Positions 25,373 to 50,330 are shown, counted from the stretch's first letter. The stretch is 64,000 nucleotides of DNA from an uncultured delta proteobacterium (GCA_963771175.1 CAVYSY010000030.1:1-64000); one strand, 5' to 3'. Notes: generated from the sequence alone by a model not told the origin. Numbers and translations are program-made.

Positions 25373-25583
25373 TGCGTGCACCGGACCATGTGGAACACCG
25401 ATTCCGGGGCAAGTGGAACACTGATTCCGGAGCAAGTGGAACGCCCATTCCGGCCATGTGGAACACCGATTCCGGGCAAGTGGAACGCACCCTGGAAGTA
25501 GGTGGTGGGACGGGCGACCCAGTGGAGCGTTGACGGTGCTGGACGAGCCGCCGCCTCTGACCTCCCCCAAGAAGGAGGTCGTG

Positions 25584-27126
25584 ATGGCGGCAGAGAGGCT
25601 GTCCATGCGCAAGCTGAGAGAGTTGTTGAGGCAGAGGTTGGAGCTGAAGCTGTCGGTGCGGGAGATTGCCCGGAGCCTGGGAATCGGCGTGGGCACGGTG
25701 AATCGCTACCTGTACCGGGCGCAGGCGGCGAAGGTGACGAGCTGGCCGCTGCCGCCGGAGCTGGACGACGACGCGGCGCTCACGGCGCTGCTGTTCGCGG
25801 ACGAGGGCAAGGTGGTGGCGAGCCGGCCGGAGCCGGACTGGGCGCACGTGCACGTGGAGCTCAGGAGGAAGGGCGTCACCAAGCTGCTGCTGTGGCAGGA
25901 GTACCGGGAGGGCAACCCGGAGGGCTACCAGTACAGCCAGTTCTGCGAGCGCTACGCGCGGTGGGCGAAGTGCGTGAGCGTCACCATGCGCCAGGAGCAC
26001 CGGGCCGGGGAGAAGTGCTTCGTGGACTTCAGCGGCGACGGGCTGGAAGTCCACGACGAGGTGAGCGGAGAGGTGCGGGTGGCGAAGCTGTATCTGGCGG
26101 TGCTGGGGGCCAGCAACTACACGTACGCGGAGCCCGTCTTCAGCGAGGACATCGCCACGTGGGTGGGGTGCAACCAGAGGGCCTTCGCGTACTTCGGAGG
26201 GGTGGCGGAGCTGGCGGTGCCCGACAACCTGAAGGCGGCAGTCACGAGGGCCAACCGGTACGAGCCGGACATCAACCCCAGCTACGCGGACATGGCCAGG
26301 CACTACGGCTTCGCGGTGGTGCCGGCGCGGCCACGCAAGCCGCGGGACAAGGCGAAGGTGGAGAACGGAGTGCTGCTGGCCGAGAGGTGGATTCTGGCGG
26401 CGCTGCGCAACCGGCGCTTCACGTCGCTCGTCCGAGGTGCGCGAGGCGGTGGCGGTACTGCTGGAGAAGTTGAACACGCGGCCCATGCGCAAGCTGGGCA
26501 AGAGCCGCCGGCAACTCTTCGAGGAGGTGGAGAGGGCGGCCCTCAAGCCGCTGCCGGACAAGCCCTACGAGCTGGCGCACTGGAAGAAGGCGCGCGTCAA
26601 CGTGGACTACCACGTGGAGTTGGAAGGGCACTGCTACAGCGTGCCCTACGGGCTGGTGGGGCAGCAGGTGGAGGTGCGCTACACGCAGTCGTGCGTGGAG
26701 GTGTTGCTGGGAGGCCGGCGCGTGGCCAGCCACGTGCGCAGCGAGGAGCGCGGACGCTTCACCACGCTGGCCGAGCACATGCCGGCCAGCCACCGCGCGC
26801 ATGCGGAGTGGACGCCGAGCCGAATCCTCTCCTGGGCCGCCACGGTGGGCCCCAGCACGGCGACACTGGTGGAGGAGTTGATGAAGCGCCGGCCCCACCC
26901 CGAGCAGGGCTTCCGCTCGGCCCTGGGCGTCATCCGCCTCTCGCAGCGCCACGGGCAGCAGCGCGTGGAGAAGGCGTGCGCGCGGGCGCTGCGCCACCGC
27001 GCCTACAGCTACAAGTCCGTGGCCGCCATCCTCCAGCACCACCTCGAGGAGGTGGAGGCGGCGCACGAGGACAAGGGCCCGCTGCCCGAGCACGAGAACG
27101 TGCGCGGCGCTGACTACTACCACTGA
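25584..27126 (+). CDS. istA: IS21 transposase IstA (frameshift near 26430)
   Basis: HTH, YQYSQFC, FVDFSG, VPDNLKAAV, PRDKAKVE; ends HENVRGADYYH. Confidence 0.92.
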
Positions 27127-27270
27127 GGCTTCCCGCGCCCGGCCACGGTGCGCGGACAACTCTCCGCGGTGCCGGCCCTCGCGGCCCGGTGCCTCGGAGG
27201 ACGCCTGCGCGCGCCCTTCGGGCGCGCTCCGGCGGCGCAACACCCAACACCCCAACGAGGAGACGAGACG

Positions 27271-28029
27271 ATGCTGGTGGAGCAGACGCTGGAGAAGCTC
27301 AACGCGATGAAGCTGTACGGCATGGCCAACTACCTGCGCACCTGGATGGAGCGGACGCCCGACACGCAGCTGGGCCCGACGGACCTGGTGGGCCTGCTGG
27401 TGGACGCCGAGTGGGTGCACCGGGAGAACAAGAAGCTCACCTCGCGCCTGCGCAACGCGCGGCTGCGCCAGACGGCGTGCCTGGAGGACATCGACTACAG
27501 CCTGGCGCGAGGGCTGACGAAGGCGCAGGTGCTGGAGCTGTCCACCTCGCGCTGGGTGGCGCAGGCGCAGAACGTGCTGGTGACGGGCCCCACCGGCGTG
27601 GGCAAGAGCTTCCTGGCGTGCGCGCTCGGACAGAAGGCGTGCCGCGACGGCTACGGCGTGGTGTACCGCCGCGCCTCGCGTCTCTTCGACGAGCTGGCGC
27701 AGGCTCGCGCGGACGGCACCTACCCGCACCTGCTGCGCAGGCTCGCCAAGGCCCAGGTGCTGATTCTCGACGACTTCGGCCTGGAGCCCCTGGGCGCCAG
27801 CGAGCGCAAGGAGCTGCTGGAGGTGCTGGAGGACCGCTACGGCGTCGGTGCGACCGTGGTGACGTCCCAGCTCGAGCCGAAGGACTGGCACGCGGTGATT
27901 GGCGACGCCACCCTGGCCGACGCCATCCTCGACCGGCTGGTGCACAACGCCCATCGGCTCAAGCTCACGGGCGACTCGGTGCGCGACCCGGAAAGGAATT
28001 TGACCCGGTCCAAGAAGGGGGCGAAGTGA
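27271..28029 (+). CDS. istB: IS21 helper ATPase IstB
   Basis: GPTGVGKS Walker A, LILDDFG Walker B, ADAILDRLVHNAH. Confidence 0.95.
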   Translation: MLVEQTLEKLNAMKLYGMANYLRTWMERTPDTQLGPTDLVGLLVDAEWVHRENKKLTSRLRNARLRQTACLEDIDYSLARGLTKAQVLELSTSRWVAQAQNVLVTGPTGVGKSFLACALGQKACRDGYGVVYRRASRLFDELAQARADGTYPHLLRRLAKAQVLILDDFGLEPLGASERKELLEVLEDRYGVGATVVTSQLEPKDWHAVIGDATLADAILDRLVHNAHRLKLTGDSVRDPERNLTRSKKGAK

Positions 28030-28128
28030 ACCCCGGCCAGCGTCGCTGACGCTCCGACTGTTCCGCTTGCTCCGGAACGGGCGTTCCACTTCGTCCGGAA
28101 CGAGTGTTCCACATCGCCGGAATACGCA

Positions 28129-28285
28129 CTCCGAGCTCATCGCCCACCTCGAAGCGAGCTGGCCCGAGTACAACCGCCTCTACGCCCACCCATTCACTTG
28201 GTCCTGGACCCGTCCCAAAATGCACGATTGGGTGGACAGGCATCACTCCTGACTATGTCGAATTACTTCGCGGACAGTCCACTAG
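28129..28285 (+). mobile_element. IS630-family remnant (transposase C-terminus and right end)
   Basis: SELIAHL..EYNRLYAHPFTWSWT-stop, then an end ...GGACAGTCCACTAG. Confidence 0.6.
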
Positions 28286-30015
28286 GAGCTTGTCGGAGAA
28301 CCCCACCGCTGAGGGTGGGGTAGAGGGGAGACGCCCCAGGTGGTCCTTCAGAGTGGAGGCGAGTTCTGGTTGAAGCTGGAGGGTGAGCACCAGCGAGACG
28401 AAGAAGGCCGAGCAGAGCGTTCTGTTGGATGTGCCCGAGGCCCAGAAGCCGCAGCGGCAGGAGGAGACGAAGAGCTCCGCGCGCTTCAGCTCGCCGCGAC
28501 CGTTCCGGGAGTGGCAGCCGGACCAGGGGCAGCTGCTGCCGCAGTACGCGCGGGAGGTACTGGGAGAGGGGCACCTGGCGTGCTTCTTCGTGGAGCTGGT
28601 GAAGGTGCTGGATTTCGGTCCGATTCTGGGGGCGTACACCAAGGAGTGCGGCCAGCCGCCCTACCACCCGGTGATGATGACGTTGCTGCTCATGTACGCC
28701 TACGCGCGCGGCATTACGAGCAGCCGGGAGATTGAGCGGCGGTGCGAGACGGACATTGCGTTCCGCTACCTGACGGGAGGAGAGCAGCCGGACCACGACA
28801 CGGTGTGCGCCTTCCGGGTGAGACACCTGGAGGCTTTCCGAGCTCTCTTCGTGGACACGCTGCGGGTGGCCAGCCAGTCGGGGCTCAAGAAGGTGGGGCA
28901 CCTGTCGGTGGACGGCACGAAGATGAAGGCCAACGCCAGCAAGCACAAGGCCATGAGCTACGGGCGCATGGACGAGGCCATGAAGAAGCTGGACGAGCAG
29001 GTGGAGCGCCTGCTGGCGGAGGCCGAGGAGCTGGATGCACAGGAGGACGAGCGCTACGGCAAGGGACGGCGTGGGGACGAGCTGCCCGAGGAGATGAAGG
29101 ACCCGAAGAAGCGCGCCGAGCGGCTGCGAGAGGCGGCGCGCCAGGTGGAGGCGGAGAAGAAGGTGGCGCTGGCGGTGGAGAAGGAGAAGCGGCGGGAGAG
29201 GATTGGCCAGGCGAAGCAGGAGTTGGAGGAGCAGGCCAGGAAGAAGGCCGAGGCCGAGGGGAAGCAGCCCGAGGAGGCAAAGCCCTCGCGAGAAGGCGCA
29301 GTACAACTTCACCGACCCCGAGTCGCGAATCATGCCCAAGGGAGGCGCCTTCCAGCAGTCCTACAACGCGCAGGTGGCGGTGGACGCGGACACGCAGTTG
29401 GTAGTGGCGCAGGAGGTTGGGCAGAGCAGCAGCGACGCACGTCAGCTGGCGCCCATGGTGGAGCAGGTGGAGGCCAACACGGGGCTGGTGCCCGAGGAGC
29501 TGAGCGCGGACTCGGGCTACCTGTGCCAGGAGGACATTGAGAAGGTGGAGGACAAGGGCGTGGAGTGCTTCGTCGCCACCGGGCGCGACAAGCATGGGGA
29601 GGAGGCGCCGCCGGCTCCGAGAGGACGCCCGCCGGCTGGCCTGAGCTTCAAGGAGCGGATGAAGCGCAAGCTGTTGACGAAGCGGGGACGCAAGGCATAC
29701 GCGCGACGCAAGGTGACGGCCGAGCCGGTGATTGGGCAGGTGAAGAACACAGTCCTGCCACGCTTCTCGCTGCGGGGCCTGCTGAAGGTGCAAGGCGAAT
29801 TCTCGCTGGCGTGCGCCGTCCACAACCTCAAGAAGATGTGGAAGCAGGGCTGGGAGCTTCCCAGCCTGGCCGCGCAGGCCGCGTAGCGGCGAGGTCGCCG
29901 CGAGGCGGCACGACGAGTAGGTCGCTTCGTCCTCCCCCCATGACCACTGGGCCTGTAGCGCCATATGGCGCCTGTTATGCGCCACTGTCCCTCTGGCCGA
30001 TTCCCCGACACGCTC
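28286..30015 (+). mobile_element. IS1182-family insertion sequence with CTAG target duplication
   Basis: IRs GAGCTTGTCGGAGAA / TTCCCCGACACGCTC (13/15); CTAG at 28282-28285 and 30016-30019. Confidence 0.9.
28383..29886 (+). CDS. IS1182 DDE transposase (frameshift near 29285)
   Basis: GQPPYHP..SSREIE..PDHDT..VDGTKMKANAS; NFTDPESRIM, YNAQVAVD, ADSGY, RK..AEPVIGQVK. Confidence 0.9.
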
Positions 30016-30380: not shown

Positions 30381-30746
30381 GATACCCCAAGCCCGTCGGG
30401 AGTGGACGGTAGCCCGAGCGCTGGTTCGCATACGCTGCCGAGCGGTAGCCCGTGCGAACAGATGCAAGAAGCGGGAGGAGCAGGAGTAACCCATGTGTTC
30501 CACCTCGTTTGATCCCTAATGTGGCTCTGGCCCCATAGCAGCGACTACCCCGACTCAATGGAATGAGCGGAAGCATGTCGGGCTGGCCGGTGTCAGGAGG
30601 CTCGGTTAGGGCACCGCTCCCCGTTCGCTCCCTGCCCCGGCAATGAACGGGCAATCCCTCGTATACTCGCCGAGAGGACGCCTGCATGCATGAGACGACA
30701 AGGAGGTGGGGGCGGGGACTTGCCTCCCCGTCGCGGCGGGGGCGGC

Positions 30747-32480
30747 ATGAGCTTCGGCTTTCCCTGGGGCCTGCTGGCGCTCGGCGCGCTGGTGCCGCTG
30801 GTGGCGGCGTACTTCCTCCGGCGCAAGCAGAAGCCGGTGGTGGTGAGCGCCCTCTTCCTCTGGCGCTCGCCCCGCCCTCGCGCCGAGGCCGGCCCCCGCT
30901 TCGAGCGCTTCACCCGCGAGGCCTCGCTGCTGCTGGAGGCGCTCGCGGTGGTGGCCGCGGCCCTCTTCCTCGCGGATGTGCGCTTCGGCGAGGCGGCGCG
31001 GGCGCGGCACCTGGTGCTGGTGGTGGACGGCAGCCTCTCGCTGTCCGCGCGCGGGCCCGACGGGCGCCCCGTATTGGAGAAGGTGCGCGCCGAGGCTGCC
31101 CGCCGTGTGGAGGAGGAGAAGGCCACGCAAGTGACGGTGCTGGTCAGCGGCACGGTGCCGCGCGTGCTGGCGGGGCCCGAGGCGGATCCCTCGCGGGCCC
31201 TGGCCGCCCTGGAGTCCTTCCGCGCGCTCGGAGCGGACCACGACGTGGCCCCCACGCTGCTGTGGGCGCAGGAACTGGCGGGTCCGGGCAGGCGGGTGCA
31301 CTTCCTCACCGATGCCATGCCCGCGCAGGGCGCGGCCGTGCCCCCGGCGGTGCGGTGGACGGCCCTGGGCGCGCCTCGGGACAACGTGGCGCTGGTGTCC
31401 GCGTGGCGCCGCGACGAGGGCTCCACGGCCACGGTGACGCTGCGGTTGGCACGCTTTGGCGCGGGGCCGGAGGAGACACAGGTGAGCGTGGTGGCCCGGC
31501 CCGGCCCTGGAGCGAAGGAGGGCACCGAGCGGCGCGAGCGCATGCGGCTGCCCGAGGCGGGCGCGGCCACGCTGCGCCTCACCTTCGAGAACGCCGGGGA
31601 CGTGGAGGTGTCCCTGCCCCCGGACGCGCTGCCCGAGGACGGCGAGGCCCGCCTCCCGCCCGCCCCGGAGCGTCGGGTGCGCGTGGCGCTGGCCGAGGGG
31701 CTGGATGCGCAGGCGCGCTCGGCGCTGGAGCGCTTCCTCGCGGTGGCCCCCGAGGTGGAGCAGGGTCCCGGCGAGGGAGCCGTGGTGCTCGGCCCTCGGG
31801 GGACGGACGCGCGGGTGACGGTGGGCGCGGGCGGCACGGTGCGCACCTTCGTGGGCCCCTTCTTCGCGGAGAAGGGCCACCCGTTGCTGGATGATGTGCA
31901 ACTGGGCGGCGTGCGCTGGGCGGCCGGCAGCGAGGCTCCCCCGGGTCGGCCCCTGGTGACGGCGGGCACCGTGGTGCTCCTCTCCGAGGAGGAGGGCCGC
32001 GTCCACCTCAACGTGGACCTCGCGCGCTCCAACGTGCAGCGCACGGCCGCGTGGCCGGTGCTGCTGGGCAACCTGCTGCGCGAGGCTCGGCGCGCCCAGG
32101 AGGGCTTCCCCCGGCGGCAGCTCTCCCTCGGCGAGCCCCTGTCGTTGGTGACGGTGGCGGGCGCTCGCTACACGCTGGCGGGACCCGAGGGGAACCGCCC
32201 CCTCTTCGGCGCGGGCGCCTTGAGCCTGCCCCCGCCCGCGGTGCCCGGCCGCTACGTGCTGGAGCGGGACGGCGAGCCGGTGGATGCGGTGGAGGTGCTC
32301 GCGCTGGATGCCCGCGAGTCGGACCTGCGCGGGCGTGGCGAGGGCGACAGGCCCGCTGAAGCCGAGGGCGATGACGACGGGGGCGAGTCCTCTTCAGGCC
32401 GGGCGCGCTGGCCCCTGCTGGTGCTGCTGGCGGCGCTGCTCGCGGACTTCTCCCTCACCCGGCGCGCGGAAGCGAAGTGA
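30747..32480 (+). CDS. BatA domain / vWA membrane protein
   Basis: MSFGFPWGLLAL..PLVAAYFLRR; LVVDGSLSL; C-terminal ESDL and TM helix. Confidence 0.85.
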   Translation: MSFGFPWGLLALGALVPLVAAYFLRRKQKPVVVSALFLWRSPRPRAEAGPRFERFTREASLLLEALAVVAAALFLADVRFGEAARARHLVLVVDGSLSLSARGPDGRPVLEKVRAEAARRVEEEKATQVTVLVSGTVPRVLAGPEADPSRALAALESFRALGADHDVAPTLLWAQELAGPGRRVHFLTDAMPAQGAAVPPAVRWTALGAPRDNVALVSAWRRDEGSTATVTLRLARFGAGPEETQVSVVARPGPGAKEGTERRERMRLPEAGAATLRLTFENAGDVEVSLPPDALPEDGEARLPPAPERRVRVALAEGLDAQARSALERFLAVAPEVEQGPGEGAVVLGPRGTDARVTVGAGGTVRTFVGPFFAEKGHPLLDDVQLGGVRWAAGSEAPPGRPLVTAGTVVLLSEEEGRVHLNVDLARSNVQRTAAWPVLLGNLLREARRAQEGFPRRQLSLGEPLSLVTVAGARYTLAGPEGNRPLFGAGALSLPPPAVPGRYVLERDGEPVDAVEVLALDARESDLRGRGEGDRPAEAEGDDDGGESSSGRARWPLLVLLAALLADFSLTRRAEAK

Positions 32481-33501
32481 GCAACTCTCCGCCTTCGGGC
32501 ACGAGGAGCGACTCCACCGCCGCTCGCGCCTTCTTGAAGCGCTCGTCCCACGAGCCGCTCAGCTTCACGTAGCGTCGGCCCCGCGAGCGCAGGGCGTTCT
32601 CGCAGCTCTCGAGGAACGAGGTGCGTTCGTCCGGCAGGTAGCGCACCGGGTCCGCCACCCACGGCACATCCACGTCCGTCAGCAGGTAGAGGTCGTAGTC
32701 ACGGCGCTCCGCCTCCTGGAGGATGGGCGCCGGGCACTCGCCGAAGAGCACCTCGCTCCAGATGCTCGTCTCCAGCACGTCGGTGTCGCAGATGAGGACC
32801 CGGTTCGCGCTCCGCGCCAGCGCGTCCTCCGCCGCCGCCTGCCCCCGTGCGATGCGCGGCATGTCCGCCAGCTCCACCTTGCCTCCCCGCGGCTCCAGCA
32901 GCAGTCGGGCGTACTCCGGCACCATCACCGTCTTGAAGTGCTCCGCCAGTTGCTTCGACAGCGTCGTCTTCCCCGTCGACTCCGGGCCGAAGACGCACAC
33001 TCGCCGAGCGAAGTAGGGCCGCACGCACCTCGGCAGGTAGTCCCAGTGTTTCCACGGGTCATTCCGGATTGCCGTGCCACTCACCGGCACCGCCCCCCGC
33101 GCGATGTCCACCGGGATGAACTCGGCCCCCAACACCTCGGCCAGCTTCGCGCCGTACTCCTCGGAGGCGAACACGTAGTCCGGCCGGCCCGGCAGCACCC
33201 GCCGCAGGCTGTCTCGCCAGATGTCCCAGAACTGGGGGTGCTCGTGGGGGTACTGCGGGTTCTCGTCCGTCAGGTGCACCACCCGCGTGTCCGGGAAGAG
33301 CTCGCGCATCCACCCGTGGCGCAGCTCCCCGGGAATGGGCTCGGCCTTCAGCGTGCCCACCACCACCGTGAGGTCCGCCACGTACTCGCGCGCGAACTCC
33401 ACCAGGAAGACGTGCCCGAGATGCGGCGGCATGAACTTCCCGAGCACCATGCCCGTCCCCTGGCGCACGCTGCTCGCCCCTCGAATGCTCCTCGTGCTCA
33501 T
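32455..33501 (-). CDS. NadR-like bifunctional nucleotidyltransferase / ribosylnicotinamide kinase-type protein (no HTH)
   Basis: GKFMPPHLGH (HxGH), SGTAIR, GPESTGKTT Walker A, PEYAR, LICDTD, WVADPVR. Confidence 0.88.
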   Translation of the reverse strand: MSTRSIRGASSVRQGTGMVLGKFMPPHLGHVFLVEFAREYVADLTVVVGTLKAEPIPGELRHGWMRELFPDTRVVHLTDENPQYPHEHPQFWDIWRDSLRRVLPGRPDYVFASEEYGAKLAEVLGAEFIPVDIARGAVPVSGTAIRNDPWKHWDYLPRCVRPYFARRVCVFGPESTGKTTLSKQLAEHFKTVMVPEYARLLLEPRGGKVELADMPRIARGQAAAEDALARSANRVLICDTDVLETSIWSEVLFGECPAPILQEAERRDYDLYLLTDVDVPWVADPVRYLPDERTSFLESCENALRSRGRRYVKLSGSWDERFKKARAAVESLLVPEGGELLTSLPRAG

Positions 33502-36500
33502 GCTGTGCCCTCTGCTTCCCGCGCGAACGTATACCCAAGATAGGTGTGCAGCAGCGCCTCGGTGACCGGTGGGCACGAGAGCCCCGAGCCCTCCAGCCCC
33601 GCGCGCGCGTGCTCCATGCCGAATTCCGCCCCCGTCGCCTGGAAGAGATCCATCGTCCGGTGTCGCTCGAAGGCGCCCCCGGACAGGCCCCGGCAGAGCG
33701 CCAGGTACGCGGCGGCCTCGGATGAGCCCACCTCCTCCCGTGCGAGCGCGGCGAGCCGGGCCCGCCACTCCTCCTCGGAGACGGTGGCGAGGGGGATTCC
33801 AAAGGAGCGCAGGGCGTCCACCAGCACGGGCAGCGACAATGGCCGGGGATTGGCGAGGTGGAAGGTGGACGAGCCCTCCGCCGGGGCCGCGTGCAGGGAC
33901 AGGTGGGCCACCGCCGCGGCGGCGTAGTCCACGGGGGTGATGTCGACCGCGAGCCCCTCGCCCGCACCGCGCGGGATGCAGCCGAGCGAGGCCACCCCTC
34001 GGAAGAACAGGGACAGGAAGTCGCTCGCGGAGGCGCGCCCCGTGCGCGTGTCGCCCGTGATGAGGCCCAGCCGGTAGTACGTGATGGGCCCGGCCTCGCC
34101 CCGAGCGGAGCGCAGGAGCGCCTCGGCCGCCCACTTGCTCTGCGCATACCCGCCGAAGATGCGCTGGGGGCCCTCCAGTGCGTCCGTCTCCTCCAGGCGC
34201 CCGGTATTCCTGTCCGTCGACACGAACACCGACAGGGTGGAGATGTGGTGCAGCGACTTGCGTGCCCCTTCCGCCTGCAGGCGCAGCACCTGCTCGGTGC
34301 CTCCGACGTTCGCCTCGCGCAGCGCGCGGTACGGGAGCACCATGTTGACGTGGGCCGCGCAGTGGTAGATGTGGCCGACCTCGCGAGTGAGCCGCTCCCA
34401 CTCGAGCTCGTCGAGCCCCCAGCGCGGGCGTGCCAGGTCTCCCCGGAGCGCTACCAGACGCGCGGCCTCCTCCCGCGAGGGCGGCGTGCCTTGTGCCTCG
34501 AGTGCGCCCAGCAGGCGCTCCCGGGCTTCCTGGTCATCCCGGGCCCGCACGAGGCAGAGCACCCGGGCCTTGGTGCGCCGGAGCAGCTCGTGCAGCAGCC
34601 GCGAGCCGAAGAACCCCGTGGCTCCCGTGAGCAGCAGGTCTCCACCAGGAGATGCCGCTGGCCGCTCGCGGGCGGTGTGCAGGAGGGCCTCCCAACCGGG
34701 CCCCAGTGCGACGTCCGCGCGCAGTTCGTCCGCGCTCATGCCTCCATCCGTGGACGGCTGCTCCGGTCCTCCGGCTCCCATGTGGGCCAGCAGCTCGGAG
34801 ATGGTCGGGTGCGCGAGCATCGCGGCTGGACGGAGGGGGAGCCCGAGCGCCTCGGCCGCCGCGACGACCTGAAGCACCCCGAGCGAGTCCCCGCCGAGCG
34901 CGAAGAAGTCGTCCGTCACGCCCACGGGCGCCACGCCCAGCACATCCTCCCAGAGCTCACACAGCAGCCGCTCCGGCCCGGTGGCGGGAGGGACCACTCC
35001 GTCCGCCTCCCGCCGGGCCGAGAGTGGCAGGCGCGAGAGCACCTCGAAGTCCACCTTCCCCGTCACGGTGCGGGGCAGGCGCTCCAGCGGCTCGAAGCGC
35101 TGCGGTAGCATCCACCGGGGCAGCACGCCCGACAGGTGCGCGCGCAGCGCGTCCGGCGCGGGAGTCTCCCCGGGGAGGCGGGGCACGACGAACGCCACCA
35201 GCACGGCGCGCGCCTTCTCCCCGTCCGGGACGAGCGGGCGCTTGAGGACCGCCACGTCTTGGATACCTGGATGGCGCAGCAGGTGCGCCTCCACCTCCTC
35301 CGGCTCGATGAGCAGGCCCCGGAGCTTGAGCTGGCGATCCACGCGGCCGAGGAATTCCAGCTCCCCGTTCGGGTGCTCCACCACACGGTCGCTCGTGCGG
35401 TAGAGGCGCTCGCCGCCCCGCTCGACGAAGCGGGCCGCGGTGAGCTCGGGGCGGTTCACGTACCCGCGCGCCAGCCCCACGCCTCCGAGGTACAGCTCCC
35501 CGGGAGTGCCCGGTGGCACGGGCTCGCCTCGCGCATCGAGCACATGCCAGGACATGTTGGGAATGGGCTGACCGAGCAGCGGGCGCGTCCACGTCTCCGG
35601 ATCGCACGCGCAGAGGCTGGTGCAGATGGTGGCCTCGGTGGGGCCGTAGACGTTCACCACGCGCAGGTGACGTGCCCAGCGTCGGACCACCTCGGGAGGA
35701 CAGGGCTCTCCGCCGATGACGAGGACCCGCAGGGTGGCGGCCAGGGCCTCCGGCTCGAACATCCGCAGGAGCGAGGGGGGCAGGTCCGCGTGCGTGATGC
35801 GCCACCCGTTGAGCAGCGCCACGAGTCCCGGCCCGGGCTGGAGCGCGTGCGCGGGTGGCAGGCAGAGCGTCGCGCCGGACAAGAGCGCCGTGCCGATGTC
35901 GGACAGCGACGCGTCGAAGCTCGTCGACAGGTAGAGGATGGCGCGGCTCGTCTCGTCGAGCGCGAAGGCTTCGATCTGCGCGAGCAGCAGGTTGACGAGC
36001 CCCCGGTGCGGTACGAGCACGCCCTTGGGTGTACCCGTGGTGCCGGAGGTGTAGATGACGTAGGCGAGGTCCTCGGGGTGCGAGGACCCGCTCGGAGTCT
36101 CGCCGGTCGGAGCGCTCTCCGGCACGTCCTCGAGCCGCACGACGCGGGCCTCCACTCCTTCCAGCCGGGGCTCCGCACCCCGCCGCGCCACCACCAGCCC
36201 GAGCCCGCAGTCGCGCGCCATGAAGTCAATCCGCGCGGGGGGCAGCGTGGGCTCCAACGGCACGAACGCCGCTCCCGCGGCCCACACACCCAGCAGGGCG
36301 ATGACGTACTCGGGGGACTTCTCGAGGAACAACCCGACGATGCACTCGGGTCCCGCCCCGAGCCGCCGCAGGTGCGCCCCGAGCGCGGTGGCACGCTGGA
36401 GCAGCTCCGCGTAGGTGAGGCGGTTGCCCTCCGACTCCAGCGCCACCCGGTGGGGATGCGCGGCGGCGACGGCTCGGAAGTGCTCCCAGAAGGTGCCGGT

Positions 36501-36512
36501 GGGCGGGCTCAG
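33498..36512 (-). CDS. Stand-alone NRPS-like enzyme: adenylation-PCP-thioester reductase (A-T-R)
   Basis: YVIYTSGTTGTPKG, YGPTEAT, GELYLGG, FFALGGDSL, LLTGATGFFG, YAQSKW. Start uncertain: CTG at about 36512 after GGAGG, or fusion to the upstream gene. Confidence 0.9.
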   Translation of the reverse strand: MSPPTGTFWEHFRAVAAAHPHRVALESEGNRLTYAELLQRATALGAHLRRLGAGPECIVGLFLEKSPEYVIALLGVWAAGAAFVPLEPTLPPARIDFMARDCGLGLVVARRGAEPRLEGVEARVVRLEDVPESAPTGETPSGSSHPEDLAYVIYTSGTTGTPKGVLVPHRGLVNLLLAQIEAFALDETSRAILYLSTSFDASLSDIGTALLSGATLCLPPAHALQPGPGLVALLNGWRITHADLPPSLLRMFEPEALAATLRVLVIGGEPCPPEVVRRWARHLRVVNVYGPTEATICTSLCACDPETWTRPLLGQPIPNMSWHVLDARGEPVPPGTPGELYLGGVGLARGYVNRPELTAARFVERGGERLYRTSDRVVEHPNGELEFLGRVDRQLKLRGLLIEPEEVEAHLLRHPGIQDVAVLKRPLVPDGEKARAVLVAFVVPRLPGETPAPDALRAHLSGVLPRWMLPQRFEPLERLPRTVTGKVDFEVLSRLPLSARREADGVVPPATGPERLLCELWEDVLGVAPVGVTDDFFALGGDSLGVLQVVAAAEALGLPLRPAAMLAHPTISELLAHMGAGGPEQPSTDGGMSADELRADVALGPGWEALLHTARERPAASPGGDLLLTGATGFFGSRLLHELLRRTKARVLCLVRARDDQEARERLLGALEAQGTPPSREEAARLVALRGDLARPRWGLDELEWERLTREVGHIYHCAAHVNMVLPYRALREANVGGTEQVLRLQAEGARKSLHHISTLSVFVSTDRNTGRLEETDALEGPQRIFGGYAQSKWAAEALLRSARGEAGPITYYRLGLITGDTRTGRASASDFLSLFFRGVASLGCIPRGAGEGLAVDITPVDYAAAAVAHLSLHAAPAEGSSTFHLANPRPLSLPVLVDALRSFGIPLATVSEEEWRARLAALAREEVGSSEAAAYLALCRGLSGGAFERHRTMDLFQATGAEFGMEHARAGLEGSGLSCPPVTEALLHTYLGYTFAREAEGTA

Positions 36513-37363
36513 GATGCGCCTCCGGCGGGAGCCGCCGCGGGGTGGACGTACTCCTCGAGCGTCGAGCCGGTCGAGCGGTTGTCCACGTCGGGAGCACCGA
36601 GACCCTGGCGGTGATCCTCGAGGTGGACGGAGCGGAAGTCGACGCTGAAGCGTGTGCGCCCCGAGGCGTGTGGTCGCGTGCGGTGCAGGTGCGCCGCGGA
36701 GAAGACGAGCACCTCGCCCGTCCGGCACGCGAAACCCCGCTCCTGGAGCCCGTCGAGTGGGACGAGGGACGTGGGGTACGCGGCGCTCGCCGCTCGCTTC
36801 GGGTTCTGCCACCCCGCCTGGGTGCGCCACGTCTGGTAGTCGAAGGTGGAGGAGGAGTTGGGCACCGGCTGGTCGAAGGCCTCGGGGAAGAAGGTGAACG
36901 TCTCCTCCTCGGTGCCGTCGTGGAGCGCGAGCCACCAGTTGAGCTGTGCCCGAGGATTGGCGTACCAGGTGTCGCGGTGGGCGAAGTAGACGGGCGCGGC
37001 CGCTTCAATCTCATGCCCCCGGTGCAGGACGCCGCGGAGCCGCGGCTTGTCGAGGGCGTACTCGTCCGGCGCCTGTCCCGCCGCCGCCAGCACCGCGCGA
37101 GCGCCCGCGAGGAAGCGCGCCTCCCCGGTCAGCACCTGGCGCACGCGCCCCAGGCGCTCGAGGTGCTCCGCCGCCGGTAGCCGGAACTGCGCCTCGCGCG
37201 GGTCTCCCACGTCCTGGAAGGTCTCCGCGAGCAGCTCGAAGACCTCGCGCGCCAGCCGCATCGATGCCTCGCTCGGGGCCAGCTTGAAGAGGGCCCCGGC
37301 GTAGAGCGCTTGCCGGAACTCCGTGGGGCGGGAGGGCGGTGGGGCGAAGGGGAGGGGGCTCAT
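36509..37363 (-). CDS. Fe(II)/2-oxoglutarate-dependent oxygenase-like protein
   Basis: HRDTWY (HxD), LNWWLAL, GEVLVFSAAHLH, TRFSVDFR. Confidence 0.7.
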   Translation of the reverse strand: MSPLPFAPPPSRPTEFRQALYAGALFKLAPSEASMRLAREVFELLAETFQDVGDPREAQFRLPAAEHLERLGRVRQVLTGEARFLAGARAVLAAAGQAPDEYALDKPRLRGVLHRGHEIEAAAPVYFAHRDTWYANPRAQLNWWLALHDGTEEETFTFFPEAFDQPVPNSSSTFDYQTWRTQAGWQNPKRAASAAYPTSLVPLDGLQERGFACRTGEVLVFSAAHLHRTRPHASGRTRFSVDFRSVHLEDHRQGLGAPDVDNRSTGSTLEEYVHPAAAPAGGAS

Positions 37364-37492
37364 GGACGCTCCGCCGAGGAAAGCACAAGGGAGGTGCTCC
37401 GATGAAGACGGGCCCCGGGGTCACCCCCCTTGGACGGCCAGACCCTGGTAGCATGGTGTACCTGTCTCCCCGGGAGCCCGGTTCCTCCACGC

Positions 37493-40242
37493 ATGAGCTT
37501 CTCCCTGCCCCAGGCGCTGGTGCTACTCGTGCCGCTGGGCCTCTTCCTGTGGAAGCGGGGCCGGCGCCCTGGCCCTCCCATGGCCCTGCGCTGGGCGCTG
37601 CTGCTGCTCACGGTGGGCGCGCTCGCCGGTCCCGAGCTGGTGCTCAGCCACGCGGGCAGTGACGTGGTGATGGTGGTGGACCGCTCGCGCTCCATGCCAG
37701 CGGACGCGGGACGGGTGGCCTCGGAGCTGGTGGGCCTGCTGGAGTCGCAGCGGCGGCCCGGGGACCGGGTGGGCGTCATCTCCTTCGGGCGCGAGGCTCG
37801 GGTGGAGCAGCCGCTGTCGCGAGGCGGGGCGCTTCGGCGGCTTCACCCGACCAGTGGACGCGGAGGCGTCGGACCTGTCGGCGGCGCTGGACTGCGGCGG
37901 GAGGCCTCATTCCTCCAGGCCGCACGGGCCGGGTGCTGGTGGTGTCCGACGGTCGGGCCACGGGCGCGGATGCTCGCGGCGCGGCCCGGCGACTGGCGGC
38001 CCGGGGCATCGCCGTGGACTTCCGCCACGTGGCCCGCGAGGACTCGCCGCTGGACCTGGCCGTCCTCTCGCTGGACGTGCCGGCCTCGGTGACGGCGCGC
38101 GAGCCCTTCCAGATGACCGGGGTGGTGCAGGCCTCGGCGCCCATCACCGGCACGGTGCGCCTGGAGCGCAATGGCCACGTATTGGTGAAGGGGCCCTTCG
38201 AGTTCCACACCGGGCCCAACCTGCTGCCCTTCCGCGACCTGGTGGACGAGCCGGGGCTGGTGGCCTACCGGCTGACGGTGGAGGCGCCGGGCGACGGAGT
38301 GGTGGAGAACGACGTCGGGCAGGCGGTGCTGCGCGTGGAGGGCCCGCCTCGGGTGATGCTGCTCACGGACCAGCCCGAGGGCACGCTCGCCAAGGCGCTG
38401 CGCTCGGCGGGGCTGCTGCTGGAGGTGCGCGCGCCCTTCCCCGTGACGATGGACGCGCTGGATGGCGTGGGCGCGGTGGTGCTGGAGAACGTGGACGCGA
38501 ACCGGCTGGGCGAGCCGGGGTTGAACGTGCTCGCCACCTACGTGGAGCAGGCCGGCGGCGGGCTGGTGATGACGGGCGGCCGGGCCAGCTTCGGCGAGGG
38601 CGGTTACCGCCGCTCTCCGGTGGAGCCGCTGCTGCCGGTGTCCCTGGAGATGCGCGAGGAGCAGCGCCGCACCGCGCTGGCCATGAGCGTGCTGATGGAC
38701 TGCAGCTGCTCCATGGGCATGCAGGTGCCGGACGGGCGCACGAAGATGGAGCTGGCCGCCGAGGGCGTGGTGGGGGCGCTCACGCTGCTCAACGAGAAGG
38801 ACGAGGCGTCCGTCCACATGGTGGACACCGAGGCGCACGAAATCTTTCCGCTGAGCCCGGTGGAGAACGGCCTGCCGCTGGACGAGGTGTCGCGGGGCTT
38901 CAGCGGCGGAGGCGGCATCTACGTGGGCGAGGCCCTGCGCGTGGGCCGGAAGGAAATCCTCCAGAGCGACAAGGTCACCCGGCACGTGCTGCTCTTCTCG
39001 GACGCGGCGGACTCGGAGGAGCCGGACGACTACCTGAAGACGCTGCGGGAGCTGCAGGGCGAGAAGGTGACGGTGTCCGTCATCGGCCTGGGGACGGAGA
39101 AGGACCCGGACGCGGAGCTGCTGAAGGAGGTCGCCGCGAGGGGTGGAGGCCGCATCTACTTCGCGGAGGACGCGACGAGCCTCCCGCGCATCTTCAGCCA
39201 GGAGACCATCGCCGTGGCGCGGGCCACCTTCGTGGACGAGCCCGCGTCGCTGGAGGCGGCGCCGGACCTGCCGCTGCTCGGGAGGCTGCCGGCGGTGGGG
39301 CTGCCCCAGGTGGGCGGCTACAACCTCACGTACCTGCGGCCGCGCGCGAGCGTGGCCCTGCGGACACTCGACGACAACGCGGCGCCGGTGCTGGCGCTGT
39401 GGCCGCGCGGGGCGGGGCGGGTGGCGGCCCTCATGGCGGAGGTGGACGGGGAGTTCACCGGCGAGCTGCGCTCCTGGAGCGGCCTGCGCGCGGCGCTGGA
39501 GGGCATGGTGCGCTGGACGATGGAAGGGGCGGGCGAGGCGGGCGAGGCGGTGGCGCGCTCGGAGCGGCGGGGCAACCTGCTGCGGGTGACACTGGACTTC
39601 GCGCCGGGAGAGGCCCTGCCGGGTGCGCTGCCCTCGCTGGTGCTGCTGCCTGGGGACGGGCGGGGCACGCCGGTGGAGGTGCCCATGCGCTGGGAGGACG
39701 AGGACCGGGTGGCGGCCGAGTACACCCTGCCGGGCAGCGGCACGTGGCACCCGGTGGTGAAGCTGGGGACGCGGGTGCTGCGGGCCCCTCCCGTGGCGCT
39801 GCCCTACGCGCCCGAGTTCGAGCCCGGCAACGCCCAGGAGGGACTGGAGGTGCTGCGCGCTGTCGCGGGCGTGGGCGGTGGCATGGAGCGGCTGTCCATG
39901 GCCGGCCTCTTCGCGGAGGCGCCGGAGTCGGAGGGGCGCGTGGTGCTGGCGCCGTGGCTGGTGGGGCTGGCGGTGGCGGTGCTGCTGTCGGAGGTGGCGG
40001 TGCGCCGCTTCCTCTCCGGTCCGAGGCCGAGGCGCGCGGTGGCTCCCTCGGCGGAGGCCGTGGTGGTGCCGGGCCTGTCGGCTTCGGCCGCCGTGCGCCC
40101 ACCCCCAAGGGAGAGTGGGAAGGGCACCGCGCCGGAGGCCCCAGCCGCCGCTTCGGGCGAGGCGACGCGCGAGACGGAAGGCGGCGTGGACTCGGCGCTG
40201 GAAGCCGCGCGGGAGCGGGCCCGGCGCCGCCTGAAGCGCTGA
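37493..40242 (+). CDS. Double vWA domain membrane protein (frameshifts near 37830-37900)
   Basis: VVDRSRSM, LVVSDG, LMDCSCSM, LFSDA, GGGLVMTGG, C-terminal TM helix. Confidence 0.85.
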
Positions 40243-40329: not shown

Positions 40330-41229
40330 ATGAGTCCCAAGAAGGTGGCCTGGGCACCGGGTGCCGGGTTCGAGGAGCCCTTCTGGCACCTCGCCGCACT
40401 CCAGGTCTCCTCGTTGTGGGAGGAGACCCGCGGCGAGGGCGTGGTGATCGCCATCCTCGATGGTGGGGTGGATGACGTCGTCGGCCTTCGGGGAGAGCGC
40501 ATCCAACATGTCGATTACCAGGGCCGGGAGAGCTCTCCCTGGGATGACAGCAACGGCCACGGGACCGCGTGTGCCAGCCTCGCCGCATCCAGCCACAAGC
40601 ACGCACCGGGCGTGGCTCCCGGGGCGAGCCTCCTCAGCATCAACGTCGCCGGGGTGAACGGAGAGCCCCTCCTCTACAAGGTGGAGTCAGGGCTGCGGGT
40701 GGCCATCGAGTCCGCGGACATCATCTCGTGCAGCTTCGTCATGCCGGAGGTCTCGCAGGCCATCTGGGATGTCCTCCGGGAGGCGCAGGCCCTCGGGCGC
40801 GTGGTGGTGGGCGCCGCTGGCAATGACGAGACGCTGACCTCCGCGTTTCCCGAGAACGTGCCCGAGGTCATCTCCGTGGCCGCGCTCTCGCGCCAGCTGA
40901 CGCCCCTCTCCGGCGGACGCTTCGGCCCGTTCGTCGACCTCGCCGCACCGGGTCAGGACCTCCGGGTGAGCACCTCCCTCGGCATCAAGAACTGGCGGGG
41001 CGCCACCTCCGGCGCGACCGCCCTCGTGTCCGGTGTCTGCGCGCTCGTGCTCTCCGCGGCGAAGAAGCACGGATTGAATGTCACCGAAGTCGGGCGCTCG
41101 CTCCCGGAGCTCCTCCTGTCCACCGCCACCGACCTGGGCGAGGTGGGGCCGGACGTCACGACTGGCGCCGGAATGATCAACCCCCCGAAGTTGCTGGAGG
41201 CGGTCCTCTCCCAACTTGGAGTCTCTTGA
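40330..41229 (+). CDS. S8 family serine peptidase (subtilase), no signal peptide
   Basis: IAILDGG, GHGTACAS, AAGN, GATSGATALVSG catalytic motifs. Confidence 0.88.
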   Translation: MSPKKVAWAPGAGFEEPFWHLAALQVSSLWEETRGEGVVIAILDGGVDDVVGLRGERIQHVDYQGRESSPWDDSNGHGTACASLAASSHKHAPGVAPGASLLSINVAGVNGEPLLYKVESGLRVAIESADIISCSFVMPEVSQAIWDVLREAQALGRVVVGAAGNDETLTSAFPENVPEVISVAALSRQLTPLSGGRFGPFVDLAAPGQDLRVSTSLGIKNWRGATSGATALVSGVCALVLSAAKKHGLNVTEVGRSLPELLLSTATDLGEVGPDVTTGAGMINPPKLLEAVLSQLGVS

Positions 41230-43328
41230 TGTCTCGAAGGCTTGCACGCCCGTTGTGCCTGGTGCTGTCCCTGTTCCTCGTCCCGCTCTCCGCGCGTGCG
41301 AACACCGCGAGCGAGGAGGAGTGCGCGGAGACCGGACGGCTCGTCATTCCCTCCGTCCCCCTGGAGCAGGACCGCTTCGCGTTGGCGCTGAACAGGTTCT
41401 GCGCGGACCTCCGGACGTCGAGGTTCGAGCCCGGCAACGTGACCGATCTTCCCCCCACGAGCCTCGCCCCGGCGCGAGCCGCCGAGCGGTTCGTGGTGGA
41501 GTCGCTGGTGGCCGCGGTCTCTTCCCTGGGCAATGACAAGGCCAGGGCCGGGGAGGCGGTCGCGTCGCTGAGCGCCCTCAAGAAGACGTGTGAGGCCATC
41601 GCCTTGCGGCGGCTCGAGGGTCAGGACATCCAGAACCTGAGGGCGTTCCACGGCCAGCTCCCCGAAGTGCTCTTCGTCATGGACCAGCTTGCCCTGAACC
41701 AGACGACGCTCCGGGGCCTCTTCACCGGGGTGAGCGGGCTCAAGTCCGGAGCCGAGGAGCTCGCCGCCGGGCCCTGGCAGGCACTGGAGGCGAACCTCGT
41801 CGCGGGAATGACGACGTTCGTGGTGGGACGCGCCAAGGCCGAGTCCATCCTCTACCTGTCTCAGCAGCTCAAGAAGACGCTGTGCGAGGGCAAGGCGCGG
41901 CCGTACTACCGCAACGTGTGCGTGGCCCTGGGCGATCTGGATGTGAAGCTCCAGCTCGCGGCCATGGGCGCCTACATCCAGGCCGCCGCGCAGCGTGACC
42001 TGGAGGATCTGCCCGATGCGCTCCTCGAGCAGACCGCCTGCAAGCCGTCCGCGCGCGTGCCCGAGCTGACCGCGGCCCGCCTGGGCCTGTCGTTCTACCG
42101 GGAGTCGAAGTCGAGCCGGCACCCCCTGGAGCTCTCGCGCAACCTCCAGCATGTGCAGCTCGCCTGTGCCACGGGGCCCTGCTCGGAGTTGATGGAGGTC
42201 ATCAAGGTGGGCTCCCGCCTGATGGAGGCCATCCAGCGGCAGAGTGGCTGGGAGCGACTGCCCCTGGCGGCCCCGGACGACATCAGGTGGCGGCACCATG
42301 CCCTCGGCACGCTGTTGTCGTTCGAGAAGCTCCAGCACATCACTCTCTCGGAGGGGGATTTCGCCACGGGGTTGAACTTCATCGACAGCGCGCTGCACGA
42401 GGTGGTGGACATCTCCTCGGCCATCCAGCAGCTCCGCGATGACCCGAAGGGCTCCAAGGCGTTGGACCTGGGAGTCCAGGTCTCGCGCTCGGTGTCCGTG
42501 TTCATCCAACTGGGAATCGAGGGCGGCCAGCGGTGGGCCGGGCTGAGCGCCACCCAGACGCGGCCGCTCCTGGTGGCGCGGGAGGTGGCGCGATTTGGCG
42601 AGCACGCGATGGATGACCTGCGGCCGGGTCCCCTCGCGCTGGCGCTGAGCGACCTGCTCGTGAGCCTGAGGACACACGTGCCGGAGCTCCAGCTCCCCCC
42701 GGCGGTGGGCCAGGTCATGCCCTTCGTGGTGGAGCTGGCGAACGCGACGACGAGCGATCATGTGGCCAAGGCGCTCGAAACGGCGGCGGCACCGGTGGGG
42801 GGCTACCAGGGCAAGTTCGAGCGCTTCACCGTGTCCCTCAATGCCCTGCTGGGGGTCTCCGGCGGCTTCGAGTGGCTGGATGACGGCACCCAGGTCACCA
42901 ACAGTCCCATCCTCGGCCTCATCGCGCCGGTGGGCGTGCATGCCGCCGGACCGGTGAGCGACAACGTGCACCTGGGCGTGATGGCCTCGGTCCTCGACCT
43001 GGGAAACCTGGCCGCTGTCCGGCTCGACAACGAGACCCAGACGGGGGCGACCCGCACGTCCGTGGAGAACCCGTCCCGGGTGAGCTTCGCGCAGGTGTTC
43101 GGGCCGGGCTTCTACGGGACGCTCGGGCTCGGGCTGGGGACGACACCCCGCTCGCCGTTCCTGATCGGCGCCGGAGTCTCCCTGGTCCCGGGTGGCCGTG
43201 AGGTGACCACCACCACCACGCGCACCACGCCCGAGGGCGGCGTGGAGACCGTGACCAGCACCACCACCGAGACGGCGGTGCGCGCCTCCATCTTCCTGGC
43301 GGTCGACGTCACCCTCCTCCCGTTCTGA
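41229..43328 (+). CDS. Secreted hypothetical protein (helical N-terminal part, beta-rich C-terminal part)
   Basis: TGATG coupling to the subtilase; signal peptide; C-terminal strands ending LLPF. Confidence 0.75.
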   Translation: MSRRLARPLCLVLSLFLVPLSARANTASEEECAETGRLVIPSVPLEQDRFALALNRFCADLRTSRFEPGNVTDLPPTSLAPARAAERFVVESLVAAVSSLGNDKARAGEAVASLSALKKTCEAIALRRLEGQDIQNLRAFHGQLPEVLFVMDQLALNQTTLRGLFTGVSGLKSGAEELAAGPWQALEANLVAGMTTFVVGRAKAESILYLSQQLKKTLCEGKARPYYRNVCVALGDLDVKLQLAAMGAYIQAAAQRDLEDLPDALLEQTACKPSARVPELTAARLGLSFYRESKSSRHPLELSRNLQHVQLACATGPCSELMEVIKVGSRLMEAIQRQSGWERLPLAAPDDIRWRHHALGTLLSFEKLQHITLSEGDFATGLNFIDSALHEVVDISSAIQQLRDDPKGSKALDLGVQVSRSVSVFIQLGIEGGQRWAGLSATQTRPLLVAREVARFGEHAMDDLRPGPLALALSDLLVSLRTHVPELQLPPAVGQVMPFVVELANATTSDHVAKALETAAAPVGGYQGKFERFTVSLNALLGVSGGFEWLDDGTQVTNSPILGLIAPVGVHAAGPVSDNVHLGVMASVLDLGNLAAVRLDNETQTGATRTSVENPSRVSFAQVFGPGFYGTLGLGLGTTPRSPFLIGAGVSLVPGGREVTTTTTRTTPEGGVETVTSTTTETAVRASIFLAVDVTLLPF

Positions 43329-43494
43329 GTCCAGCCACCCTGCCGCTCCAGTCCTATTCCTGACGTCTCCTGGACATTCCTCCTCATGAAGGAATTCCAG
43401 GAAGTCTCCGGGCTGGTGCTAAGACGCGCGTCCTCCCCCTGTCGTGGGGTCGGGCTCCCCCCGCCCGGCTCCTTGGCCCCAACCGAGGCACGCG

Positions 43495-44544: not shown

Positions 44545-44586
44545 GGCCCCGTGCCTCCCATGGCCCGGGGCCCCGAGGGCTCCGGG

Positions 44587-45798: not shown

Positions 45799-45860
45799 GG
45801 TGTGCCTCCAGGGGGTGAAGCGAGGGGCCCGGCCCGTCCTCGCGCGACTCCCTGGATAGC

Positions 45861-47183: not shown

Positions 47184-47246
47184 GGCGGCTGCTCCTCTGC
47201 GCGGCGGGGCACCCTTCATCCAACTCCCGAGGATTGTCCAGCCCGT

Positions 47247-48643
<1,397 letters not shown>

Positions 48644-48647
<4 letters not shown>

Positions 48648-50107: not shown

Positions 50108-50330
50108 TCGGCCTGGGTATCCGGGAGCGACCGTGGGCCCCAGAACAGCTCCTGCTCCACCAACAACTCGCACACCTGCCCTGGTCCACGGTCAGTGGGG
50201 GAGGGAAGAGGGCATGGGCCAGGATGGGGGTGCAAGCAGGAAAGGGGTCGCCTCCTGAGCATGGCCCGTGCCACCAGGGCTTCTCCTCGGGCCCCCGGGA
50301 GGTGGTGGGGAAAACGGGCTCCGAGGCCTG

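Follow-up and report, generated by a model that had tools for sequence, protein, structure and literature searches.

The salvage pathway encoded by the pnuC-nadR pair ('salvage III'), in which a transporter gene lies upstream of nadR, has been described, and a helix-turn-helix (HTH) domain in NadR is restricted to Enterobacteria (PMC2330246). Stand-alone enzymes made up of adenylation (A), thiolation (T) and reductase (R) domains are also known, for example the Xenorhabdus ATRed enzyme, which makes a pyrazine (PMC7586950). None of the known A-T-R systems was found paired with NadR in the literature we searched. Another point of reference is the chloramphenicol-type logic, in which a hydroxylase and an A-T-R enzyme together lead to an amino diol. 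Here, we analysed a stretch of 64,000 nucleotides from an uncultured delta proteobacterium (GCA_963771175.1, CAVYSY010000030.1:1-64000; the window, in what follows, is this whole stretch), which carries three genes coding for a PhyH-type iron(II)/2-oxoglutarate (Fe/2OG) oxygenase (OXY), a stand-alone A-T-R reductase (ATR) resembling the non-ribosomal peptide synthetases (NRPS), and an HTH-less nicotinamide mononucleotide (NMN) adenylyltransferase/ribosylnicotinamide kinase (NadR). The original prediction for this DNA, a note made from its sequence alone, did not recognise the combination as a characterised pathway, and we found no description of it either; most subscription journals lie outside the literature searched, and absence from print is therefore not shown. 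The three genes recur as part of a six-gene cassette in many phyla, and we tentatively propose that they are the core of a small-molecule pathway coupled to the metabolism of nicotinamide adenine dinucleotide (NAD).

The trio forms a self-contained minus-strand operon between a convergent BatA/VWA_2 gene and a divergent VWA-domain gene. OXY (36509..37363, minus strand) is an open reading frame (ORF) of 284 amino acids with an ATG start and GGAG upstream. ATR (33498..36512, minus strand), delimited by its Pfam and NCBIfam domains and by an alignment of the junction, has 1004 amino acids counted from a CTG start, and NadR (32455..33501, minus strand), recognised by AAA_28, TIGR01526 and structure alignment, has 348 amino acids and an alternative in-frame ATG at 33450. 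Each junction overlaps by four bases, CTGA between the OXY stop and the ATR start (36509..36512, minus strand; junction alignment of the Archangium copies) and ATGA between the ATR stop and the NadR start (33498..33501, minus strand; read from the sequence), which confirms the three overlapping, co-directional genes of the original prediction. The OXY stop codon TGA (36511-36509) shares three bases with the reading frame opened by the CTG at 36512. We take this CTG as the ATR start because no ATG, GTG or TTG lies in frame between 36728 and 36446, because the site reads CTGA in five and GTGA in one of six aligned Archangium copies, and because GGAGG is found 6 nt upstream. From these features, OXY, ATR and NadR are predicted to be one translationally coupled operon that is conserved as a unit. 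Neither a sigma-70-like promoter nor an intrinsic terminator was detected between 32000 and 38200 (0 sites of either), a weak test in DNA with 72% G+C.

A profile of 20 OXY homologues led to 178 places in species-representative genomes, from which 80 loci were kept. They come from Myxococcota, Planctomycetota, Verrucomicrobiota, Acidobacteriota, Obscuribacterales, Armatimonadota, Actinomycetota, Clostridia, Alpha- and Betaproteobacteria and others. Six genes make up the cassette at these loci, coding for a zinc-dependent alcohol dehydrogenase-like protein (ADH), an AsnB-type amidotransferase, an S-adenosylmethionine-dependent N-methyltransferase (MT), OXY, ATR and NadR. Besides OXY, MT is present in 72 of the 80 loci, ATR in 71, NadR in 69, AsnB in 54 and ADH in 49; all six stand together in 41, and many of the other loci are cut by contig ends. 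The ATR orthologues at these loci are 32-59% identical over the full length. Where at least 6 kb is available on both sides of OXY (45 loci), 39 loci have ATR and NadR, three have NadR only, two ATR only and one neither, and NadR directly follows ATR in 61 of 77 same-strand pairs. The genes move as three pairs, ADH-AsnB, MT-OXY, with MT directly before OXY, and ATR-NadR, in varying order. Fusions within one ORF, which the original prediction had proposed to look for, join MT to OXY in 12 loci, ADH to AsnB in three, OXY to ATR in two and ATR to NadR in one (L067), the two closest relatives of which (L063 and L070) are unfused; among the best 150 of 404 OXY relatives, there are a further two OXY-A-T-R and four MT-OXY proteins. 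No other widely conserved cassette gene was found, the next most frequent family occurring in 12 of the 80 loci. The trio had been put forward as a functional unit, a view that depended on its conservation elsewhere, and its recurrence across many phyla bears this out. The label 'minimal' fits the three-gene unit itself, but holds only in the sense that it is a reduced form of the six-gene cassette; ADH, AsnB and MT, the ADH-AsnB pair elsewhere in the same genome and the recurrent NAD-gene neighbours had all been overlooked.

The additional cassette proteins show features of their own. AsnB scores above the TIGR01536 cut-off and keeps its N-terminal Cys. The closest solved relative of MT is NmbA, the N-methyltransferase of the cysteine amine of bacillithiol (PDB 9RI2; E value 8.7e-21 over nearly the full length), an N-directed natural-product methyltransferase that acts on a free alpha-amino group (PMC12719100). 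The relationship is only moderate, and the substrate is surely different. The ADH-like protein has about 307 amino acids (L099:8150-9073 on contig C33 of this genome, and 43 orthologues) and keeps the catalytic and structural zinc motifs. G-x-N-R-I-A replaces the usual GxGxxG dinucleotide-binding motif and Pfam detects the N-terminal domain only; going by this motif, the protein may bind its cofactor in an unusual way. One of the 80 loci, from Planctomycetota, has a calcineurin-like metallophosphoesterase gene between MT and OXY (L022:8445-8933). A known anti-phage defence system was considered and rejected, as no PADLOC model matches OXY, ATR, NadR, ADH, AsnB or the tandem NadD protein described below, and MT gives only a weak mad2 match. 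On plasmids, three distant OXY relatives (28-31% identity) were found on rhizobial megaplasmids, without the cassette. Likewise, no cassette partners lie near the distant NadR-like genes in genomes G022, G030 and G039 or near a distant OXY relative in G049.

ATR contains AMP-binding, PP-binding (5e-14) and NAD_binding_4 domains and has no condensation (C) domain. The adenylation domain reaches 395 bits against TIGR01733 (cut-off 317) and has the equivalents of D235 and K517, and the thioester reductase reaches 316 bits against TIGR01746 (cut-off 213). The carrier serine (GGDS) and the reductase motifs TGxxGxxG (G126/G129/G132) and YxxxK (Y285, K289) are invariant in 33 orthologues. By these motifs, A domain, carrier serine and reductase are all intact, and reductive release is predicted. 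The best full-length NCBIfam match of ATR is the A-T-R part of the myxochelin synthetase MxcG (NF038078; 607 bits); MxcG, however, has a C domain and a cut-off of 2300, and ATR matches profile positions 459-1434 only and was not accepted as an MxcG protein. Assignment as a carboxylic acid reductase was rejected as well (NF041592; 206 bits versus a cut-off of 1300). What ATR has in common with stand-alone A-T-R reductases such as ATRed is the A-T-R organisation without a C domain and an amino-acid-type A domain.

To read the ten residues lining the substrate pocket, 68 full-length ATR orthologues were aligned with MAFFT, with the core motifs as anchors; the positions are numbered by the GrsA convention. 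Despite overall identities of 32-59%, the code DASD[VI]GV[VI]CK is found in 67 of the 68 orthologues, and the single deviating one is probably misaligned; DASDVGVICK, which had been derived by eye for the window protein, is thus reproduced. As a control, the same columns applied to 23 other A domains of this genome gave ten-letter codes, presumably of standard Phe, Tyr, Asp, Val, Gly and Ser types, and the best agreement between any of them and the ATR code was six of ten positions. According to a survey of 2051 bacterial A domains, the consensus code for Arg is D-[AV]-E-D-[IVL]-G-A-[VI]-[TD]-K, and DAQDLGVVDK serves Glu and Gln (PMC12283262). The ATR code shares with these the frame D-A-x-D-[ILV]-G-x-[VI]-x-K and has Ser and Cys, which are small and neutral, at the two positions that sense the tip of the side chain. 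In the text supplement of that survey, a catalogue of 508 signatures, and in the literature searched, there is no code beginning with DASD. From this code we infer that ATR would accept one long-chain polar or basic amino acid, which is possibly modified at its end, in a pocket between the Arg and the Glu/Gln types. Since the pocket is nearly invariant, all cassettes probably use the same amino acid.

No match of its own in Pfam or NCBIfam was found for the window OXY protein, which does not reach the gathering score of PF05721; this family is annotated on some OXY homologues and on a fusion protein (P0128), and homologues are annotated as belonging to the phytanoyl-CoA dioxygenase family. H129-x-D131 and H227, the HxD...H iron triad, are invariant in 20 homologues, as are R238 and S240, which we take to hold the carboxylate of 2-oxoglutarate. 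The AlphaFold2 model (predicted local distance difference test score, pLDDT, of 91.6) matches PtlH, proline hydroxylase H11, ThoJ, EvdO2, PHYHD1 and EctD in Foldseek at a probability of 1.0 and a template modelling (TM) score of about 0.5. By sequence, the profile of 20 homologues gave nothing below an E value of 0.25 against solved structures; the fold search alone succeeded. Taken together, the invariant HxD...H...R motif and the PhyH-type fold show that the earlier call of an Fe/2OG oxygenase was right. OXY shares fold and HxD...H iron site with the PhyH-family hydroxylases PtlH, H11, EctD and PHYHD1, but is only about 15% identical to them, stays below the Pfam threshold and belongs to a distinct subfamily, with 404 relatives at E values of 1e-30 or below among 1.84 billion representative proteins. 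The natural OXY-A-T-R fusions suggest that OXY hydroxylates the same, possibly carrier-bound, amino acid before its reductive release by ATR, and the hydroxylate-then-reduce logic of the original prediction fits the domains. The likeness to the chloramphenicol-type logic lies in the combination of a hydroxylase and an A-T-R enzyme, whereas the hydroxylase here is of the PhyH-type Fe/2OG kind and the substrate code differs; the two are likened by description, not by sequence.

In NadR, H27-x-G-H30 and S141...R146 (ISxTxxR type) of the N-terminal nucleotidyltransferase and G172-E-S-x-G-K178 of the C-terminal P-loop kinase (AAA_28, 2.8e-38) are invariant in 33 orthologues, in agreement with the intact HxGH and Walker A motifs noted before. 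The protein aligns over its full length with the solved NadR entries 8x7f, 1lw7, 9x6f and 6gye and reaches 301.5 bits against TIGR01526, under the cut-off of 341.15; the cassette NadR proteins of four other genomes likewise stay under it. Only 16 residues precede the nucleotidyltransferase domain, and there is therefore no HTH. This was correctly predicted, as was the lack of an adjacent pnuC, and an HTH-less NadR is normal outside Enterobacteria (PMC2330246). NadR thus has the two-domain HTH-less architecture and all conserved motifs of the pnuC-nadR pair, but where the transporter would be, upstream of nadR, the cassette has the A-T-R reductase instead. pnuC is absent from the window, and none was found in this genome (an assembly that is 82% complete). 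It was found in none of five cassette genomes, and the control genomes gave the expected results. In the Archangium genomes and in four of four further cassette genomes, the NadR family has no match other than the cassette NadR.

A scan of metagenome contigs with the window NadR returned 64 loci, and the 128 NadR genes that were sorted by context comprise about 86-90 linked to the cassette, 16 with pnuC directly upstream, 21 on contigs that are too short and one or two in another context. The pnuC-linked metagenomic proteins include some that are 59-66% identical to the window NadR. When 75 cassette-linked and 14 pnuC-linked sequences were compared in a cleaned alignment, both groups were at least 90% conserved at 34 columns, and no column separated the groups at 75% or more. 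In a FastTree phylogeny, pnuC-linked clades are basal and are followed by one large, mostly cassette-linked clade (support 0.94), in which two pnuC-linked sequences (L146 and L153, support 0.64 each) and one in another context (L142, 0.93) are nested. We conclude that the cassette NadR is orthologous to ordinary pnuC-linked NadR and bears no sign of a changed substrate, its activity being a prediction from sequence. This weakens the idea of a NadR re-tooled for the product of the pathway, which it would phosphorylate or adenylylate. NadR does group with the ordinary salvage enzymes, which had been regarded as an argument against a link, but it is not independent of the NRPS-like gene: the pairwise distances of ATR and NadR correlate with r = 0.58, above all 1000 permutations (maximum 0.45). 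Two pnuC-nadR loci have unusual surroundings. In one (L126:3354-8981), an A-T didomain protein, a DUF1295 protein and a CMAS-like methyltransferase are encoded upstream of the pair, which may be another link between adenylating enzymes and NadR. In the other (L109:3915-11566), the pair is flanked by genes for two ADP-ribosylglycohydrolases, a macro-domain protein and a DUF1152 protein, with an NrtR-like or NadM-Nudix-like match further upstream at 1196-2071.

Other genes of NAD metabolism accompany the cassette in some lineages. An NrtR-like Nudix regulator is encoded directly upstream of ADH in 7 of the 80 loci, from different phyla. Genes for a NadV-type phosphoribosyltransferase, in five to six loci, and for a NadM-Nudix protein, in five, share their operon with NadR and a split A / T-R pair in Acetobacteraceae/Burkholderiaceae loci. 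Next to NadR, nine Obscuribacterales loci encode a protein with two NadD domains; the one complete genome of this group that was searched (G061, locus L030) has seven NadD-family matches, two of which are the tandem domains of a single 512-amino-acid ORF beside the cassette NadR. All of the five cassette genomes searched for it have the quinolinate synthase NadA; there is therefore no obvious NAD deficit, and we rejected the idea that the cassette is a necessary replacement of de novo NAD synthesis.

Within Archangium, the trio is sporadic. With 60 relatives searched, OXY and NadR were each found in the same 4 of 17 other Archangium genomes, and the trio is present in 5 of 18 when this genome is included. 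The gene order OXY-ATR-NadR is the same in all four other trio-bearing genomes, and identities are 76-89% for OXY, 83-92% for ATR and 86-93% for NadR. The flanking genes were assigned by Pfam, are found in 17 of 18 Archangium genomes and lie outside the pathway: on the left a BatA/VWA_2 gene (30690..32480, plus strand), which is convergent with NadR, the two ORF ends overlapping by 26 bases, and on the right a VWA-domain gene (37843..40242, plus strand), which is divergent from OXY. The gap between them measures 0.4 kb in two genomes without the trio, 1.6-2 kb in three, 5.6-67 kb with other cargo in seven further trio-less genomes, and 5.4-14 kb in the four trio genomes that have both flanks on one contig; in the fifth, the flanks are on separate contigs. 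As the gap is so variable, the BatA-VWA junction is a hot spot for cargo, and the trio is an accessory insertion in it. A tblastn search of the whole assembly revealed on another contig (C33) an ADH-like gene (37% identity, full length) directly followed by AsnB (46%). No cassette MT was found by tblastn in the assembly or in the window, and the pathway here would therefore comprise five of the six genes at two loci. Of the 18 Archangium genomes, 4 have the ADH of the ADH-AsnB pair; they are all among the five with the trio, and none of the 13 genomes without the trio has it.

A second copy of window positions 30738-37419, covering BatA and the trio, is found at 98.7% identity on contig C47 (4320-11002, locus L015), with 11 gap positions that break the OXY, ATR and NadR frames. 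It is probably a second strain or a duplicate in the assembly, which is split into 58 contigs. To the left of BatA, positions 25458-29886 of the window hold an IS21-type pair (a transposase with a Mu-transposase C-terminal domain and IstB) and an IS5/DDE_Tnp_1-type transposase in two ORFs with a DUF772 domain. To the right (40330-50191) are genes for an S8 subtilase, two large proteins without a Pfam match, MgtE, and a sigma-54 response regulator with a histidine kinase, for which no link to the trio was seen.

We propose that a small-molecule pathway, horizontally mobile and coupled to NAD, has the trio as its core and that NadR carries out its normal chemistry in the service of this pathway, and we give this reading a probability of roughly 0.45. 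OXY would hydroxylate a single long-chain amino acid, polar or basic in nature, and ATR would load the amino acid and, by reductive release, yield an amino aldehyde or amino alcohol. Where the cassette is complete, the molecule would also be N-methylated by MT and oxidised and amidated by the ADH-AsnB pair. NadR would convert nicotinamide riboside to NMN and on to NAD and would thereby supply an NAD-forming step of its own, independent of NadD and NadE, which could either sustain the pyridine-nucleotide pool drawn on by the pathway or shield the producer from the product. We favour normal NadR chemistry because the protein shows no re-tooling and because different lineages attach different NAD enzymes to the cassette. 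A purely housekeeping role fits poorly, since the kinase domain is kept in genomes without pnuC.

Several points weigh against this reading. Where nicotinamide riboside would come from in the absence of pnuC is not evident, and the kinase domain of NadR is nevertheless conserved. NadA is present in all five cassette genomes, and the cassette contains no enzyme known as an NAD consumer. The NrtR-like proteins stay under their NCBIfam cut-off (162 versus 400), and no conserved exporter or resistance-type gene was found among the 80 loci. A ten-residue code is the whole basis of the substrate assignment. The NadR phylogeny is a FastTree tree with several weak nodes, among them those of L146 and L153 (0.64), and the sampling behind it is biased, as the cassette loci were seeded with OXY and the pnuC loci with NadR.

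The conservation of the kinase in genomes without an importer for nicotinamide riboside, together with the tight coupling of ATR and NadR, keeps alive the main idea of the original prediction, that NadR acts on the product itself. The alcohol released by ATR would then mimic nicotinamide riboside and be phosphorylated by NadR and joined to AMP, giving an ADP-linked conjugate or an NAD analogue, which we regard as a possible but rather unlikely course. In its favour, the two genes overlap by ATGA, lie side by side in 61 of 77 pairs and are fused in L067, the Walker A motif of the kinase is invariant also in genomes without pnuC, some lineages add further adenylyltransferases (tandem NadD, NadM) to the cassette, and the cassette has no other finishing enzyme. 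Carboxylate, alcohol, phosphate and ADP-ester would also be a natural chemical order. However, no column separates the 75 cassette-linked from the 14 pnuC-linked NadR proteins, which share 34 columns at 90% or more, and pnuC-linked proteins are nested among the cassette-linked ones, which does not fit well with a substrate change of long standing. Moreover, no cassette gene is able to attach a ribose, and the ATR-NadR fusion is confined to a single locus with unfused closest relatives. One might speculate that an unchanged NadR would suffice if a cationic hydroxylated amino alcohol stood in for nicotinamide riboside, so that the ordinary enzyme made a non-canonical dinucleotide, that is, an NAD analogue by an NRPS-like route. 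This more specific proposal is, in our view, unlikely.

A different role for NadR follows if the pathway makes an antimetabolite directed against NAD synthesis, with NadD or the glutamine-dependent NadE as examples of its target, and NadR, or NadM/NadV or an extra NadD, serves as a protective bypass or spare; self-protection through NadR had also been named in the original prediction. This overlaps with the reading we favour, being one of its two branches, and we judge it quite unlikely. The NadR and NadV/NadM routes do bypass NadD and NadE (PMC2330246), and three families of mononucleotide adenylyltransferases, NadR, NadM and NadD, have been recruited beside the cassette in different lineages, with the cassette NadD of genome G061 being additional to several other NadD-family matches (seven in all). 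The sporadic, hot-spot-borne distribution also resembles that of antibiotic clusters. On the other hand, there is no conserved exporter, the NadR bypass requires NMN or nicotinamide riboside, which have no clear source without pnuC, and the data point to no target.

It is also conceivable, though doubtful, that the cassette takes the place of the PnuC importer and makes or unmasks nicotinamide riboside, NMN or a direct precursor in the cell for NadR, which would amount to a new NAD precursor route. ATR occupies the position of pnuC directly upstream of nadR, often with an overlap, NadR looks unchanged and pnuC was found in none of the five cassette genomes. The NrtR-like regulator upstream of ADH in seven loci and NadV/NadM in the operon of Acetobacteraceae-type loci would fit such a route, and an AsnB-type amidotransferase could in principle form a carboxamide. 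By reasoning only, however, we could not draw a plausible route by which these enzymes would turn an alpha-amino acid into a 3-carboxamido-pyridinium riboside; the core lacks a ribosyl- or phosphoribosyltransferase, and the methyltransferase has no place in NAD synthesis. Furthermore, NadA is present in all five cassette genomes, and the genes occur sporadically, as accessory genes in 5 of 18 Archangium genomes. That NadR is an unrelated salvage gene which adjoins the NRPS-like gene by chance is very improbable, for although it is orthologous to ordinary NadR, ATR and NadR are kept together across phyla in 39 of 45 well-flanked loci, their start and stop codons overlap, their distances correlate beyond all 1000 permutations, and NadR and OXY are co-distributed in Archangium.

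Taken together, each of the enzymes comes from a familiar family, and it is the fixed coupling of a stand-alone amino-acid reductase pathway to NadR that is undescribed in the literature searched. This coupling spans hundreds of lineages in at least ten phyla, in genomes without the usual importer of nicotinamide riboside. For genome mining, the two loci in this genome are a caution that 'NRPS-like' singletons can belong to pathways split over several loci. With its six genes, the cassette is small and clearly delimited as well as easy to express, and it has one near-invariant A-domain code that is not catalogued. If NadR does produce an NAD analogue, this would be a new class of nucleotide-conjugated metabolites, to which NAD-regulatory genes would be tuned. 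Solving the cassette would give either a new NAD-related metabolite or analogue, a new wiring of secondary metabolism to the pyridine-nucleotide pool, or a new antimetabolite together with its bypass resistance.

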